IMG/VR virus record: IMGVR_UViG_3300037312_000268
Span: 1 to 64,000 of that record
Length of the DNA: 64,000 bases
Source: a virus
Lineage: Duplodnaviria > Caudoviricetes
Strand: one strand, 5' to 3'
Shown: positions 3,543-42,145 of the stretch, in pieces
How positions within the stretch are numbered: position 1 is the first letter of the stretch
How the letters are laid out: each line of letters opens with the position of its first letter
The notes under the pieces: generated by a model
Database searches by the model: none
Told to the model about the DNA's origin: nothing
What the model saw: only the letters and a program-made list of their open reading frames with translations
Position numbers and translations under genes: made by a program

Positions 3543-3571
3543 TTGACAAGAATGTTGTCCAATGCTATAAT
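3543..3571 (+). promoter_or_regulatory. sigma70-type promoter
   Basis: TTGACA-17 nt-TATAAT, perfect consensus, 21 nt before the next ATG. Confidence 0.8.
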
Positions 3572-21122: not shown

Positions 21123-21410
21123 ATGGAAACATTAGACATTTTGAAGTACTCATTGGGATTGATTCAACTACTTATGTCAGCATGGTGTTACCACATGTAT
21201 AACGAAATTGGAAAAGCTAAGGATGCAACATCTAGAGTGGAAAAGGAACTGGCGGACCACAAGTTGCACACGAGTGAGACTTACATGACCAAAACTGAAG
21301 TGTCGCGGGCGTTTGACGCCATCTCTCGTTCTATCGAGTCTCTTGGCCAATCCATGGGCCAACGTTTCGATAAGATGGAAGAAAAGCTAGATAGAAAGGC
21401 AGATAAATGA
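21123..21410 (+). CDS. Holin-like membrane protein (one N-terminal TM plus coiled coil)
   Basis: Hydrophobic ILKYSLGLIQLLMSAWCY then coiled coil ending RFDKMEEKLDRKADK; directly before endolysin. Confidence 0.5.
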   Translation: METLDILKYSLGLIQLLMSAWCYHMYNEIGKAKDATSRVEKELADHKLHTSETYMTKTEVSRAFDAISRSIESLGQSMGQRFDKMEEKLDRKADK

Positions 21411-21820
21411 TTAACAGTAGAAATATAGAAGATTTGACTCCTGCCATGCAAGAGAAATGCAAAGAGTTTATTACTAAGTGCAAGGAGGCGGGTATTGACG
21501 TAATTATCACGTCGACCTATCGAGATATCGAGTCACAGAATGCCCTGTACGCGCAAGGACGCACTACACCGGGTAGCAAAGTGACTAATGCTAAAGGCGG
21601 TGAGTCGTTCCACAACTACCATATTGCGTTTGACTTCTGCCCTGTAGTGAATGGTAAGGCTCAATGGAATGACATTAAAACGTTCATTAAGTGTGGTGAA
21701 ATGGGAAAGTCTCTTGGACTGGAGTATGCGGGGGACTGGGTGTCGTTCAAGGAGTACGCCCACTTGCAAGAAGCAGGCCATACCATCGCAGAACTGAAGA
21801 GGAAGAACAATGTTAGCTAA
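21407..21820 (+). CDS. Endolysin, peptidase M15 family (L-Ala-D-Glu peptidase, CwlK-like)
   Basis: T.R....QNALYAQGRT.PG..VTNAKGGES.HNY..AFD, GL...GDW.SF.E..HL motifs. Confidence 0.9.
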   Translation: MINSRNIEDLTPAMQEKCKEFITKCKEAGIDVIITSTYRDIESQNALYAQGRTTPGSKVTNAKGGESFHNYHIAFDFCPVVNGKAQWNDIKTFIKCGEMGKSLGLEYAGDWVSFKEYAHLQEAGHTIAELKRKNNVS

Positions 21821-22268
21821 ACTGAAAGCCTTTTGGGCTGTGTTTGAGGCGGGCAAATCCGTAGCTGATCCGAAAACTTGGAAGATGCACCAAGTGTCGG
21901 CCAACGCCATTGCGGCATTGCTGTTCGCTATTGTACAACTGGGGAAAGCTTGTGGTTACGATTTTGGTATTGATATGCAGACTTGTGCTGATATTGCAAT
22001 TGGTATTCTGGCCATTGTCAACGTTGGCCTCACTGTCGCAACAAGTAAACACGTCGGACTGCCTTCGACTCCCGTACGAGAAGCCGAATCGCCTGTGCCA
22101 AGCACTGAACAACCTGCCGAAGAAGAACCCGCCCAAGTGCAAGATGTCAACACATCTAATGTGGGACGAGGAAATGTTAATACGTCAATTGATGATGACG
22201 TACGTAAGCGAGCCGCTGAATGGGTCAGACAACATTCGGCAACAAACGGCCTTACAAATGATGCGTGA
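21810..22268 (+). CDS. Holin-like two-TM membrane protein
   Basis: Two hydrophobic helices (ANAIAALLFAIVQLG; IAIGILAIVNVGLTVAT) and a Pro/Glu-rich tail; overlaps endolysin stop. Confidence 0.5.
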   Translation: MLAKLKAFWAVFEAGKSVADPKTWKMHQVSANAIAALLFAIVQLGKACGYDFGIDMQTCADIAIGILAIVNVGLTVATSKHVGLPSTPVREAESPVPSTEQPAEEEPAQVQDVNTSNVGRGNVNTSIDDDVRKRAAEWVRQHSATNGLTNDA

Positions 22269-22282
22269 CAACATAAAAGGCA

Positions 22283-22312
22283 TTGACATCTCTTTGAAAT
22301 GTCGACTATAAT
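22283..22312 (+). promoter_or_regulatory. sigma70-type promoter of putative sRNA
   Basis: TTGACA-18 nt-TATAAT with no ORF downstream before the terminator. Confidence 0.75.
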
Positions 22313-22316
22313 TACC

Positions 22317-22431
22317 AGCGTGAACCCCTTGATCCGGTAATTCACGCTTTCCTTGGCACTTGGTAGAGTGCCGTCTCTAACGAGACACCCTTCGCCCCTT
22401 CGCCTAACGGTGTTGGGGCATTTTTATTTTT
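22317..22431 (+). ncRNA. Putative ~115-nt small RNA with four hairpins
   Basis: Starts at the expected +1; stems AGCGTGAA/TTCACGCT, GGCACT/AGTGCC, GTCTC-TAAC-GAGAC, and terminator stem with a second C-TAAC-G loop; ends in T tract. Confidence 0.7.
22394..22431 (+). terminator. Rho-independent terminator (end of + strand block)
   Basis: GCCCC-TTCGCC-TAAC-GGTGTT-GGGGC followed by ATTTTTATTTTT. Confidence 0.75.
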
Positions 22432-22702
22432 ATGCTACTGCTGCTTGCACAGCTTTGGGGAACGCCTTGATACTGTTATAAAACGTAACAACAGCAGCAA
22501 TCATCTCAGTGATTTGGCTAACAAGGTTGTCAAACGGCACAGGCGGGTTGGAGGAGTTGTACAAAGGTTTAATGATTGCAATAGCAAGAGCAAGTTTATC
22601 CTTACCGTTGCCCGCACCCATCACAGCTTCGACATTTTTAACAGTATCGGTGACGATAGGCAGAAGGGTGAGGATGACATTTGCAGTAGAAATGATGTTC
22701 AT
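22430..22702 (-). CDS. 90-aa amphipathic protein resembling LL-H-type holins
   Basis: AAGGAAAG RBS; hydrophobic N-terminus; V..VEA..GAG.GKDKL motif and C-terminal I..MIAAVV.FYN resemble the LLH holin family (recognition by eye). Confidence 0.6.
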   Translation of the reverse strand: MNIISTANVILTLLPIVTDTVKNVEAVMGAGNGKDKLALAIAIIKPLYNSSNPPVPFDNLVSQITEMIAAVVTFYNSIKAFPKAVQAAVA

Positions 22703-22813
22703 GTTTAAGCTTTCCTTAGCTAGTAATTAGTTTGGTAGAAATGTACTTCGTTGTTTACTACTTGTTATACCGATTCGGTGAGATTGGTCTTGTTCCGGAT
22801 CAGCATGTTTGTA

Positions 22814-22843
22814 AGCATATACCTACAGCTTTATTTGCGTCAA
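22814..22843 (-). promoter_or_regulatory. sigma70-type promoter for the 90-aa gene (about 105-nt 5' UTR)
   Basis: On - strand TTGACG-18 nt-TATGCT. Confidence 0.55.
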
Positions 22844-22942
22844 GAAATATTCGTGAGAAATCACGTCTCATAAAAACGACATATACATGATCTTTGTTAC
22901 ATTATTGCACTGACAACGTTGATTGTCTCACGTCAACAACAG

Positions 22943-23206
22943 TTATTCGTCCACAGCTTTGCTCAGTGCCTCCAGCGTTTCAGCTTCGGCAACAATGTCT
23001 TTGGTGGTGGCTTTATAACGAGCCTTGAAGAACTTGCGAACAATCTTCTTGTCCAACTTGGTTGCATCAGCAGCTTCTTGAACAAGGGACTTGAAATCTT
23101 CCTTGTTAGCTTCTTCTTCAGCTTGCACATTAATGGCACGGCGCAGGAAGCCAGTCAGATCGTCGGTATTGAAGGTTGCTTGGTCGATGGTCACAGTTTT
23201 GGTCAT
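22943..23206 (-). CDS. T4 DsbA-like / GapR-like double-stranded DNA-binding protein
   Basis: DDLTGFLRRA...KEDFKSL...A....LDKK..RKFF.ARYK......AEAE.L aligns by eye with T4 DsbA (EDLAKFIKEA...GVDGKMFNRLL...FEAETE); 87 aa. Confidence 0.65.
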   Translation of the reverse strand: MTKTVTIDQATFNTDDLTGFLRRAINVQAEEEANKEDFKSLVQEAADATKLDKKIVRKFFKARYKATTKDIVAEAETLEALSKAVDE

Positions 23207-23381: not shown

Positions 23382-23600
23382 TTAGTTTCCTTTCCGTTGT
23401 GCCTTGCGGGCAGCACGTTGTGCTTTCAATTCACGCTTATCCCAGTTGATAAAAGTACCGAAATGGAAGCTGTCGTGGAACAGCACACCTTTCAGGAATT
23501 GCTTCGTAGCTTTGTTAGTTGCGGTACGACGTTGGCGATAAGCTTCATACGACTCGCCATCTCCACGAGCAAGAGTGCTGTGAGTAGTTTGTTCAGTCAT
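23382..23600 (-). CDS. Hypothetical basic protein
   Basis: AAGGAG RBS, 72 aa. Confidence 0.6.
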   Translation of the reverse strand: MTEQTTHSTLARGDGESYEAYRQRRTATNKATKQFLKGVLFHDSFHFGTFINWDKRELKAQRAARKAQRKGN

Positions 23601-37594: not shown

Positions 37595-39708
37595 TAGTGT
37601 GTTCCCATCCAATTCGTTGCCACCTTGTATTCGCCATCCAATTCTACATTCATTTTAAGATACTTACCAGCCTTTTTAATACACTCAACAAACACTTGTC
37701 CAACCTCCTCTGCTACTTCTGGTGATGTCTCCGCCTGCAATTCGTCATGTTGGTAGAGTACGCGCTTCACGACACATCCCTTGTAGGAATAATATGGCCT
37801 GCCTTTTTCGTCCAGTATAAACCCTCCCATAGCATTGTCAAAATACACAAGCGCTAAGTCTGTCGCGATTGCACCAGCACTTTGACACAGTTGATTCACG
37901 AGGCTGTGAGGTGAACGGGTCCGCAGAATTCGTCCATCAATTGCTGGTAAGAACTGCGACTTGCCGGTTGTCTTCCAGTAGTTTGTAACGGCGTCACGAA
38001 AATCTCTCAGTGCTGGGTTAGCGTTCCAAAATGCCTCAAACGCCTGTTTACCTTTTCTATCTGGGATACCCAATGTTTGTGCTAGCTTCGCAGCCTGCCC
38101 ACCATACAACAAACAATAAAGACCATTTTTAGCCTTACCTCTCCATTTCTTAAACTTGGGATGATCCTTGTCGTGATCTGGTGAGGATGGGTCAAATCCT
38201 TTCGTTTCCTCTGGGAAGAAGGCAACTGCATTATAACTGTGCGAATCTCCGTTAAGAATAATATCTGCGTAAGCTCCGTTATCGTACTTGAAAGTGTAAG
38301 AGGCGGTGACACGGTTCTCCAACGCAGCACTGTCCCCACCAACGAATGCCATACCCTCTTCGGCCTTGAACAGTGAGCGCATCTCTTCACCGAGCATGCT
38401 GCCAACTTTAGCCACGTTGCACACGCAAACGTGTTTCTGCCTGTGCGTAGAGGTAATGCCACTACTGCTTGCACTCAGTCTTCCATCCCACGCCAAACGC
38501 GGGTTTGCCAACCAACCTTCCAACACACCAAGACGGTTTTTGATGCTCAGGTAACGCACAATCTCCTTGATAATCGGGTTGTCCATCGCTTCAAGATTAG
38601 GGCACAGCTTCCCGCCTTCCTGAAGCTTTGGCGAAGTTTTAATAGCCTGTTTCCGTTCATCACGCATGACCTTACCATTTGCATCTTTTTGCAGGTTGTG
38701 CATTGTCGGCACCCAACCTTCTGCAATCAGAAAGTTTTTGAAGTCGTCTTGGTCTTTCAATTCCATCGGAAGTTTGATGTCTAGAAGCTTCTGCCCTTCG
38801 ACCTTGTAAACTTTACCGTAGAACTCTACATCTCCGGACTCCAACACTTTGCCACTGTGCTTTTCAATAAAGTTGAGCATGTGGCTACTGAACGTGCCGT
38901 CTTTTTTATAGGGCTTCGCGGGCATAGTGTACTCTTTCTCTTCACCCTTTTTCAAAGGACGTAGAGGAAGTTTTGGCAACACTTCCGCCTTAATTTCATC
39001 AACCATCACAACAATACGTTCGCGTAGTTTTGTCGCAGCTTCAATGTCAAAACTGACACCTGTGAATGCTTGTGCATTCATCAGGAAGAAAGCTTTCTGT
39101 CCCATGCGAAAAGATGGTACAAGCCATTCACCCTTGTACAACTCTTTCATCCCTTGGACTAACCTAAAGAACACTCCGATGTTCGCATCAACGTCGGCAT
39201 CGCAGTAATCATCAGTCTGAGGATAACTGTACAGTTTAAATTCAGCACCTTTAGGTGCAGCTTTATCTAGCACGCCTGCATCAATCAGGCTCTGACGATA
39301 ATCTATCTTCTCAGTGCTACTTCCTCGTGCGAGATACTCCAGAGAGTGGCTTGCCGCATCCGGCTCGTAAAATTGCGAGAGATATAAGGTGTCCACAAAC
39401 TGTACGTGTTTATCTTCGATGTAATCTTTGCCGTTCCTACCCACAGTTGGCACAATATCGAACAGTTTCCACAACACCCATTCATCGTACCCCAAAATGT
39501 TGTGACCTATGACAAGTGCACCATCATCGAAGCTGTTCACCCACTCCATGAACTGTGAGTAAACTTCTTGCTTTGTCATACGAAATGGATATAGTTTGGC
39601 AGAGCGTGCACCATCCAACGACTTGAGACGAATGTACCAGACTTTTGTACAGCCTAGATACAAATCGTCACCTTCGATGTCATAGCACCAGCCATACAAG
39701 TCTTTCAC
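37594..39708 (-). CDS. DNA polymerase, family A (T7-like) with 3'-5' exonuclease
   Basis: YDIEGD, GHNILGYD, YCDADV exo motifs; motif A GDSAALENR, motif B KAKNGLYCLLYG, motif C HDELQ; no intein or intron. Confidence 0.95.
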   Translation of the reverse strand: MKDLYGWCYDIEGDDLYLGCTKVWYIRLKSLDGARSAKLYPFRMTKQEVYSQFMEWVNSFDDGALVIGHNILGYDEWVLWKLFDIVPTVGRNGKDYIEDKHVQFVDTLYLSQFYEPDAASHSLEYLARGSSTEKIDYRQSLIDAGVLDKAAPKGAEFKLYSYPQTDDYCDADVDANIGVFFRLVQGMKELYKGEWLVPSFRMGQKAFFLMNAQAFTGVSFDIEAATKLRERIVVMVDEIKAEVLPKLPLRPLKKGEEKEYTMPAKPYKKDGTFSSHMLNFIEKHSGKVLESGDVEFYGKVYKVEGQKLLDIKLPMELKDQDDFKNFLIAEGWVPTMHNLQKDANGKVMRDERKQAIKTSPKLQEGGKLCPNLEAMDNPIIKEIVRYLSIKNRLGVLEGWLANPRLAWDGRLSASSSGITSTHRQKHVCVCNVAKVGSMLGEEMRSLFKAEEGMAFVGGDSAALENRVTASYTFKYDNGAYADIILNGDSHSYNAVAFFPEETKGFDPSSPDHDKDHPKFKKWRGKAKNGLYCLLYGGQAAKLAQTLGIPDRKGKQAFEAFWNANPALRDFRDAVTNYWKTTGKSQFLPAIDGRILRTRSPHSLVNQLCQSAGAIATDLALVYFDNAMGGFILDEKGRPYYSYKGCVVKRVLYQHDELQAETSPEVAEEVGQVFVECIKKAGKYLKMNVELDGEYKVATNWMGTH

Positions 39709-42115: not shown

Positions 42116-42145
42116 ATTATAGCAAACTTTTTACGCCCGTGTCAA
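42116..42145 (-). promoter_or_regulatory. sigma70-type promoter
   Basis: TTGACA-18 nt-TATAAT. Confidence 0.75.

Follow-up and report, generated by a model that had tools for sequence, protein, structure and literature searches.

A candidate antisense RNA with two-part complementarity to the leader of a lysis-linked, holin-like phage gene

What is made from a consensus promoter that stands behind a phage lysis cassette and drives no open reading frame (ORF)? This question was raised by a locus of the window, the whole stretch of 64,000 nucleotides that was analysed, which makes up the start of a metagenomic viral genome of 87,417 bp (IMG/VR record IMGVR_UViG_3300037312_000268, 45% G+C). A small RNA gene of about 110-114 nt (22319..22432, + strand; 5' end placed from the -10 box, 3' end from the U-run) converges there with the gene of a 90-aa protein (22430..22702, - strand). 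The analysis indicates that the locus probably encodes a phage antisense RNA, with its own promoter and terminator, which represses translation of the lysis-linked, holin-like 90-aa gene. The RNA gene, its structure, its two-part complementarity to the leader of the 90-aa mRNA and the co-variation of both across relatives were demonstrated computationally. An earlier note on this DNA had proposed such a silencing from a 12-nt match.

Complementarity between the small RNA and the 90-aa leader

Two short segments of the RNA were found to be complementary to two sites in the leader. The first segment, box 1, is the anti-Shine-Dalgarno sequence GCUUUCCUUGGC (22346..22357, + strand; DNA GCTTTCCTTGGC), whose core CUUUCCUU lies unpaired between hairpins 1 and 2 in the predicted fold. 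This linker pairs with the Shine-Dalgarno sequence AAGGAAAG of the 90-aa gene through 12 pairs, one of them G-U, at -18 to -7; the target, GCUAAGGAAAGC, occupies 22709..22720 on the - strand, where the + strand reads GCTTTCCTTAGC. The match to the ribosome-binding site of the convergent gene, already described in the earlier note, was confirmed and turned out to be one half of a two-part complementarity. The other half, which had been missed, involves the loop region of hairpin 2, UUGGUAGAG (box 2, 22360-22368), forming 9 pairs with UUCUACCAA in the leader (22732..22740, - strand, -38 to -30). The target of box 2, UCUACCAA, is conserved 10-40 nt upstream of the Shine-Dalgarno site, at about -40 to -25 in the leader, and in the middle part of the aligned leaders no block other than UCUACC(A/G)A is invariant.

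The RNA boxes and the leader target sites do not overlap and are about 360 nt apart. Their joint duplex in the window comprises 24 intermolecular pairs, with an energy of -29.8 to -30.6 kcal/mol by duplex folding and of -15.0 kcal/mol by co-folding, net of unfolding costs. Read from the start codon outward, the + strand of the leader presents GCTTTCCTTAGC, a spacer and TTGGTAGAA, and the RNA holds both words in the same order. The leader antisense and the RNA core are direct repeats, which suggests that the RNA originated by duplication of the leader.

The pattern GCYAAGGAAAGC was found at only two sites in the window, against 0.00 expected from 100 shuffles. The two-part pattern, for which 0.04 occurrences would be expected in the window, was found in the leader, in the antisense of the RNA itself and at one further site, in apparent coding DNA, and AAGGAAAG stands at only two gene starts in the genome. 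The window duplex (-30.6 kcal/mol) was compared with those of neighbouring start regions, seven of which (out of eight) gave -10 to -18 kcal/mol; the eighth, a doubtful GTG at 23416, reached -29.3 kcal/mol via the stem arm of hairpin 1. Elsewhere in the genome, the hairpin-2 region has a second 12-nt complement with one G-U pair (37750-37761, - strand), which lies in apparent coding DNA with no Shine-Dalgarno sequence upstream and is probably due to chance.

Co-variation of the pairing in related phages

Relatives were collected by IMG/VR searches with the 90-aa and 152-aa proteins, by motif scans filtered with a covariance model and by look-ups of homologous proteins. Sixteen distinct RNA/leader pairs were recovered. 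Both boxes are kept in all of them, with 6-13 contiguous pairs over the Shine-Dalgarno sequence for box 1 and 7-13 for box 2. Co-variation of the 12-mer sites in related phages, an expectation of the earlier note, was borne out in these 16 pairs by lineage-specific changes in the flanks. In L011 and L015 the RNA reads AGUAAG and the leader CUUACU, giving 12-13 contiguous pairs. An extra 8-pair block between the boxes is formed in L174, where the RNA carries UAAGUGCU and the leader AGCACUUA, while L175 has GGUAGAAG in the RNA and CUUCUACC in the leader. Box 2 extends to 13 pairs in L007. The loop of L171 has changed to CGGUAGAG, and codons 4-6 of the gene match it perfectly over 8 pairs.

Cognate duplexes had a mean energy of -27.1 kcal/mol versus -23.9 kcal/mol for non-cognate ones, a difference reached by none of 50,000 permutations, and the run length of contiguous pairs also separated cognate from non-cognate combinations (p = 0.004-0.007); the relatives are not all independent and these statistics are indicative. 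Shared descent alone does not favour cognate over swapped pairs, and the co-variation therefore points to selection for pairing.

Promoter, fold and conservation of the small RNA

The small RNA is preceded by a sigma-70 promoter, TTGACA-18-TATAAT, at 22283..22312 on the + strand (TTGACA 22283-22288, TATAAT 22307-22312), which matches the consensus in 12 of 12 positions. The genome has six perfect promoters and this one is the only one without a start codon within about 25 nt, in agreement with the earlier description of a promoter driving no ORF. The transcribed region (22319-22432) folds into four hairpins with an energy of -42.3 kcal/mol (z = -5.2), and none of 200 shuffled sequences was as stable. 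Hairpin 1 (22319..22346) is followed by the linker and by hairpin 2 (22355..22372), then by hairpin 3 (22373..22386), GUCUC-UAAC-GAGAC, and finally by an intrinsic terminator GCCCC...GGGGC with a U-run (22394..22432), seen as a terminator-like stem with a T-run at 22403-22417 and beyond. This terminator has no U-run in the opposite direction, and by its position it would also serve the lysis cassette.

The YUNR U-turn is a motif of antisense recognition loops, and the hairpin-2 loop, which starts with UUGG, fits this type. Two features of Hfq-type small RNAs, a U-tailed intrinsic terminator and a seed that is single-stranded, are both present. A-rich AACAAG repeats in the 90-aa leader may be a hint of Hfq, but no more than that.

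No ORF, no tRNA (ARAGORN) and no Rfam family was found for the small RNA; the Rfam search, taken to E <= 10, returned rows at chance level only. The RNA is single-copy in the genome (89 bits with the covariance model). On these sequence searches, the small RNA is a new family absent from Rfam and previously undescribed.

The unit was recovered at the same place in all close relatives, complete from the sigma-70 promoter through hairpin 1, the CUUUCCUU linker and the UGGUAGAG loop of hairpin 2 to the GCCCC...GGGGC terminator. Fifteen homologues scored 59-116 bits with the covariance model. In their alignment, which was fitted to the model and hence leans towards structure, 94% of the stem cells over all 18 structure pairs were paired, versus 36-58% with slid partners. 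Five stem pairs have changed on both sides, and the covariation score was reached by none of 500 shuffles. Four of the nine stem pairs of hairpin 1 are among those with changes on both sides (92.6% of cells paired), its loop being variable. All five pairs of the outer terminator stem are paired in 15/15 homologues, four of them invariant and one with a double-sided change in one sequence. The stems of hairpin 2 (GGCAC, GCAAC, GCUC, AACUC, GAC and others) differ between relatives yet remain paired, around a fixed loop. The core CUUUCCUU and the loop word UGGUAGAG were invariant in the first nine aligned homologues, whereas one-base variants of CUUUCCUU occur in relatives found later.

The promoter, the terminator and the covarying stems are thus kept in relatives, which upholds the view of an independently promoted, structured small RNA. 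The four-hairpin unit ending in a terminator stood in part: the window sequence does fold in this way, whereas hairpin 3 is an optional insertion, which has another sequence in L007 and is absent from other relatives. The C-UAAC-G loops shared by two hairpins, to which the earlier note had drawn attention, are likewise restricted to the window or replaced in relatives, and neither these loops nor hairpin 3 can be retained as meaningful features.

A motif scan of IMG/VR matched more than 118 stretches, of which only L119 and L138 were confirmed by the covariance model as new members; L156 also fits the model and belongs to the same contig as L002. No new member was found by the motif scan of the metagenome collection, and no copy of the RNA was detected in 185,579 bacterial and archaeal genomes by a motif scan filtered with the covariance model. 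In L173 a 159-aa gene (1378-1857) is inserted between the 90-aa and RNA genes, and the RNA stays joined to the end of the lysis cassette.

Some further observations were made around the small-RNA promoter. Its spacer (22285-22303) contains an imperfect inverted repeat, with TGAAATGTCGA conserved in many relatives and TGC(A/G)ATGC in its place in a second subgroup. This repeat could be an operator that times the small-RNA promoter; it also scores as a terminator-like hairpin on the minus strand. The six perfect TTGACA-N17/18-TATAAT promoters of the genome are located at 3543, 22283 and 80938 (+) and at 42145, 45707 and 73171 (-). Five of them have short leaders to a start codon, and the phage therefore appears to depend heavily on the host sigma-70 polymerase. 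A minus-strand ORF at 21956-22345, with a GTG start just after the antisense AAGGAAAG, was considered and discarded: it overlaps the 152-aa gene, and L004 has lost the GTG.

Leader of the 90-aa mRNA

The 90-aa gene has its own promoter, TTGACG-18-TATGCT (22814..22843, - strand), which is conserved in relatives and is located directly after a terminator-like hairpin (22852-22865). It is followed by a 5' leader of about 105 nt (22703..22808, - strand). Both the promoter and the length of the leader agree with the earlier description. The leader is predicted to form a local 5' hairpin (about 22767-22806) and to be largely unpaired 3' of it, in the stretch that holds boxes 2 and 1, so both boxes should be accessible. 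In every aligned leader the 5' end folds locally into a hairpin of the CUGAU...AUCAG type, with energies of -6 to -12.7 kcal/mol.

The word UGAUCCGG is present at 22795-22802 and has a copy at 22330-22337, within hairpin 1 of the RNA, as had been reported for the two positions. The 5'-3' fold-back of a read-through transcript that was proposed from it found no support in relatives and was rejected: the shared word of 8 nt in the window shrinks to 3-4 nt in nearly all of them, and the local 5' hairpin is kept instead.

The 90-aa protein

Three helices are predicted for the 90-aa protein (pLDDT 77). The N-terminal helix (residues 3-28, pLDDT 71-82) is weakly hydrophobic, with a single 19-residue window at or above a mean hydropathy of 1.6, a borderline 1.66 at residues 3-21. 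Almost all homologues measure about 80-110 aa, and the protein matches PHROG 36560, a family of unknown function. The likeness to LL-H-type holins, noticed earlier by eye, received weak but convergent support. Holin_LLH (PF09682) was matched at E <= 0.01 by 6 of 100 members of the family, the lowest E being 8.7e-5, and PHROG holin families by five; the best viral fold matches include LL-H holins repeatedly (TM 0.5-0.78, all E > 0.1); and the nearest Pfam-bearing Atlas cluster is PF09682 (score 0.85). The protein itself is below the Pfam threshold, and solved structures gave generic helical-bundle matches only (Foldseek E > 3, Z <= 7.3). It is here treated as a remote, sub-threshold relative of LL-H-type holins and not as a member of the family.

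The protein resembles Holin_LLH (also Phage_holin_6_1) in its size, about 90-110 aa in that family, in an N-terminal helix of borderline hydrophobicity that precedes further helices and in a location beside endolysin genes. It differs from that family in falling below the profile and in the position of its gene, which lies opposite the lysis cassette and is transcribed the same way as the replication genes; moreover, the membrane proteins of the cassette include other holin candidates (152 aa). The gene is always convergent to the lysis cassette, even where the endolysin type differs. Given its orientation with the replication genes and the other membrane proteins of the cassette, the 90-aa protein may be a holin, an antiholin-like partner or something else.

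More distant phages

In more distant phages (40-53% protein identity) the 90-aa gene is kept and remains convergent to the lysis cassette. Three of the five (L165, L166 and L169) have leaders of 16-33 nt and no pairing RNA. Syntenic hairpins were observed at L165:645-658 (-) and L168:1474-1587 (-), both GCUC-GUGGUA-G(A/G)GC, and at L164:1774-1898 (-), CACUC-UGGUA-GGGUG. The L165/L168 hairpin is one base short of a tRNA D-arm and finds no complement in the adjacent mRNA; L165 also carries the word UUUCCUU in its terminator loop. At L166:1468-1616 (-) a consensus promoter precedes a putative RNA in which AAGGAAAGC and GCUUUCCUU, a Shine-Dalgarno-like and an anti-Shine-Dalgarno word, are paired with each other in the first hairpin; AGGAGA, another ribosome-binding site, serves the gene next to it. 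IMG/VR scans for distant homologues with P0021, P0024 and P0027 found nothing.

Proposed mechanism and alternative explanations

In the mechanism proposed here, the linker CUUUCCUU and the hairpin-2 loop UUGGUAGAG would be exposed and would bind the AAGGAAAG and UCUACCAA boxes of the 90-aa leader. Occlusion of the Shine-Dalgarno sequence would keep ribosomes off, the loop contact upstream would help, and translation of the 90-aa protein would fall. No terminator lies between the 152-aa gene and the RNA, so lysis-cassette mRNAs should also carry the RNA element at their 3' end, which would link transcription of the lysis genes to silencing of the 90-aa gene. That the RNA is produced, that it represses rather than activates, when it acts and what the protein does are points that we infer from the sequence.

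A more far-reaching version, which we regard as rather doubtful when taken as a whole, would see an RNA-level lysis switch that silences a holin-family protein transcribed with early or replication genes, the RNA having arisen from the leader duplicated onto an older D-arm-like hairpin. If this were true, the 90-aa protein would be either a holin, held back until RNA levels drop, or an antiholin-like brake that is lifted once the lysis genes are switched on, and lysis timing in this virulent clade would be set by an RNA-RNA interaction and not by protein accumulation alone. For most small RNAs of virulent phages no target is known, and holin action and lysis timing are classically explained at the protein level. 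Here an RNA of roughly 110 nt and a leader of roughly 105 nt let the RNA, its target sites and their co-variation all be read from sequence. The question raised is whether phages gate lysis-associated membrane proteins with base-pairing RNAs.

Several points weigh against repression of the 90-aa gene by the small RNA. The length of the box 1 match is not unique, the 12-mer being one of the two longest genome-wide complements to the RNA core. In a crude co-folding of the RNA with 148 gene starts the 90-aa gene ranked fifth; the four higher ones need most of the RNA to be unfolded. A plain duplex scan, which leaves out accessibility, does not pick out the 90-aa gene and is dominated by implausible long imperfect duplexes. 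It is the position of box 1, and that only, which suggests repression rather than activation or mRNA stabilisation. On the side of the target, the 90-aa protein itself has neither a Pfam match nor a fold match at E <= 0.1, and the hydrophobicity of its helix is borderline. Finally, the distant phages L164-L169 show no significant complementarity between RNA and leader, the leader being short or different, and an RNA-like element with a GGUAG-loop hairpin nevertheless persists in three of the five (L164, L165 and L168). The presence of this hairpin without the pairing indicates that hairpin 2 may be older than the pairing or may have a second role.

This last point leads to the first of the alternatives, in which the RNA would mainly serve otherwise, as the 3' end or terminator of the lysis operon, as a D-arm-like decoy or as a host-directed regulator, with the leader match as a by-product of duplication. 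The + strand direct repeats, which include the two-part motif, would suit such a duplication, and the lysis genes are not separated from the element by a terminator. The hairpin-2 loop, UUGGUAGAG, is identical to a word common in tRNA D-loops, and the L165/L168 hairpin near to a D-arm lacks an mRNA complement. A small RNA with a tRNA-loop word has been described in PAK_P3, a virulent Pseudomonas phage of about 88 kb, whose sRNA2 contains a word identical to a tRNA loop (PMC4933390). The window RNA is similar in this respect; it is different in that the word in sRNA2 is that of a T-loop and no phage target of sRNA2 has been demonstrated, whereas the window RNA has a conserved and co-varying putative target. 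A passive duplicate would decay, yet the box cores are invariant and the flanks co-vary. The RNA also has its own conserved consensus promoter, and it forms no cloverleaf or other tRNA-like fold by ARAGORN or Rfam; only the D-arm-like hairpin 2 resembles a part of a tRNA. A further argument against this reading is that the filtered motif scan detected no copy in the 185,579 bacterial and archaeal genomes. A principal function of this other kind is considered unlikely.

The second alternative is a type I toxin-antitoxin-like module, as suggested in the earlier note, with the 90-aa protein as toxin and the small RNA as antitoxin; it would act in addiction, abortive infection or superinfection control and not in ordinary gene regulation. 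Non-overlapping or convergent type I pairs include tisB/istR-1, shoB/ohsC and zor/orz, as well as txpA/RatA and bsrG/SR4. As in these pairs, the antisense RNA is a neighbour of its putative target and complements the translation start region of an mRNA for a small membrane-type protein, which has a long leader with a 5' hairpin; in addition, a likeness between type I toxins and holins has been pointed out (PMC2887945). The small-RNA promoter is stronger than that of the 90-aa gene, and since the 90-aa mRNA meets no terminator of its own orientation, it could extend into the RNA gene and be antisense to the RNA, as happens in convergent type I pairs. On the other hand, the protein, at 90 aa, exceeds the usual size of type I toxins (<60 aa and strongly hydrophobic) and the helix of this weakly hydrophobic protein is borderline. 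Distant homologues stand at the same place without a long leader or a pairing RNA, so the protein is tolerated alone, which disfavours an obligate antitoxin role. The genome, moreover, is that of an integrase-less, apparently virulent phage, and not a chromosome, plasmid or prophage, with no obvious use for addiction, and in L173 the two partners are parted by another gene. An addiction-type module thus seems improbable as well.

Finally, it is very improbable that the hairpins are merely a terminator region and the 12-mer match a product of the purine-rich Shine-Dalgarno sequence by chance: the short anti-Shine-Dalgarno core, the one other 12-nt complement in the genome and an energy-based ranking that is not first would fit, but against them stand the shuffle expectations for the 12-mer and the two-part pattern, the scarcity of AAGGAAAG at gene starts, the second box, the conservation in 16 pairs, the co-variation and the conserved promoter.

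Comparison with known phage RNAs

Repression at the start region by a short structured RNA, as proposed for the 90-aa gene, has counterparts in the non-overlapping antitoxin RNAs of type I systems and in c4 of phages P1 and P7, which has a two-site a'/b' arrangement. The c4 RNA pairs around the ribosome-binding site of a non-overlapping target and blocks its translation (PMC12197685). In the window RNA, short exposed segments likewise complement separate sites around the ribosome-binding site of the target and the two genes do not overlap, a likeness of mechanism only. The two systems differ in their genetic setting. While c4 precedes its target within one transcript, belongs to temperate phages and controls an antirepressor and immunity, the window RNA has its own promoter, is convergent to a holin-like target and follows the lysis cassette of an apparently virulent phage. 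It also lacks a sequence or structure match to any Rfam family.

Antisense RNAs are also known from other phages. PAK_P4as15, an endolysin antisense RNA, has been proposed to delay lysis, and sar of P22 targets ant (PMC12197685). Like these, the window RNA is a phage RNA that is proposed, here from sequence, to repress one phage gene at its start region. Those RNAs overlap their target in cis, whereas the window RNA is about 360 nt away and uses two short boxes only.

Genome setting and neighbouring genes

The genome was estimated to be 100% complete (CheckV) and no tyrosine integrase was found in it; the phage looks virulent and complete. Structural genes on the + strand lead to the lysis cassette, which is the last block of the + strand run and includes a 95-aa protein, an M15/VanY endolysin (21407-21820) and a 152-aa protein with a clear transmembrane segment, all on the + strand. 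Leftward genes start at 22430 with the 90-aa gene, followed by an 87-aa gene, glutaredoxin and ribonucleotide reductase, and the small RNA sits where the + and - blocks converge. Searches of isolated phages with the DNA of the region, the 90-aa protein and the neighbouring 270-aa protein gave no DNA or protein match, the endolysin being the only part of the region that matches isolated phages widely. The type of endolysin varies (M15/VanY, glycoside hydrolase 19 or glycoside hydrolase 108) among the window, L164, L166, L168, L169, L171, L174 and L176, which are otherwise syntenic, and the small flanking genes are kept.

The gene of a highly charged 87-aa protein (22943-23206, - strand) is found upstream of the 90-aa gene in nearly all relatives with called genes, including most of the distant ones; its counterpart in L173 has 89 aa and in L169 it is absent. 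This protein matches PHROG 639 'transcriptional regulator' (E 2e-5) and, weakly, NCBIfam PRK13694 (E 0.022), and by eye it may be a GapR/DUF2312-like candidate. Two genes upstream of the 90-aa gene, a small protein in L171 (354-641) and L174 (126-488) gave a weak Pfam match to Acb2_Tad1_hairpin, an anti-CBASS/Thoeris sponge family.

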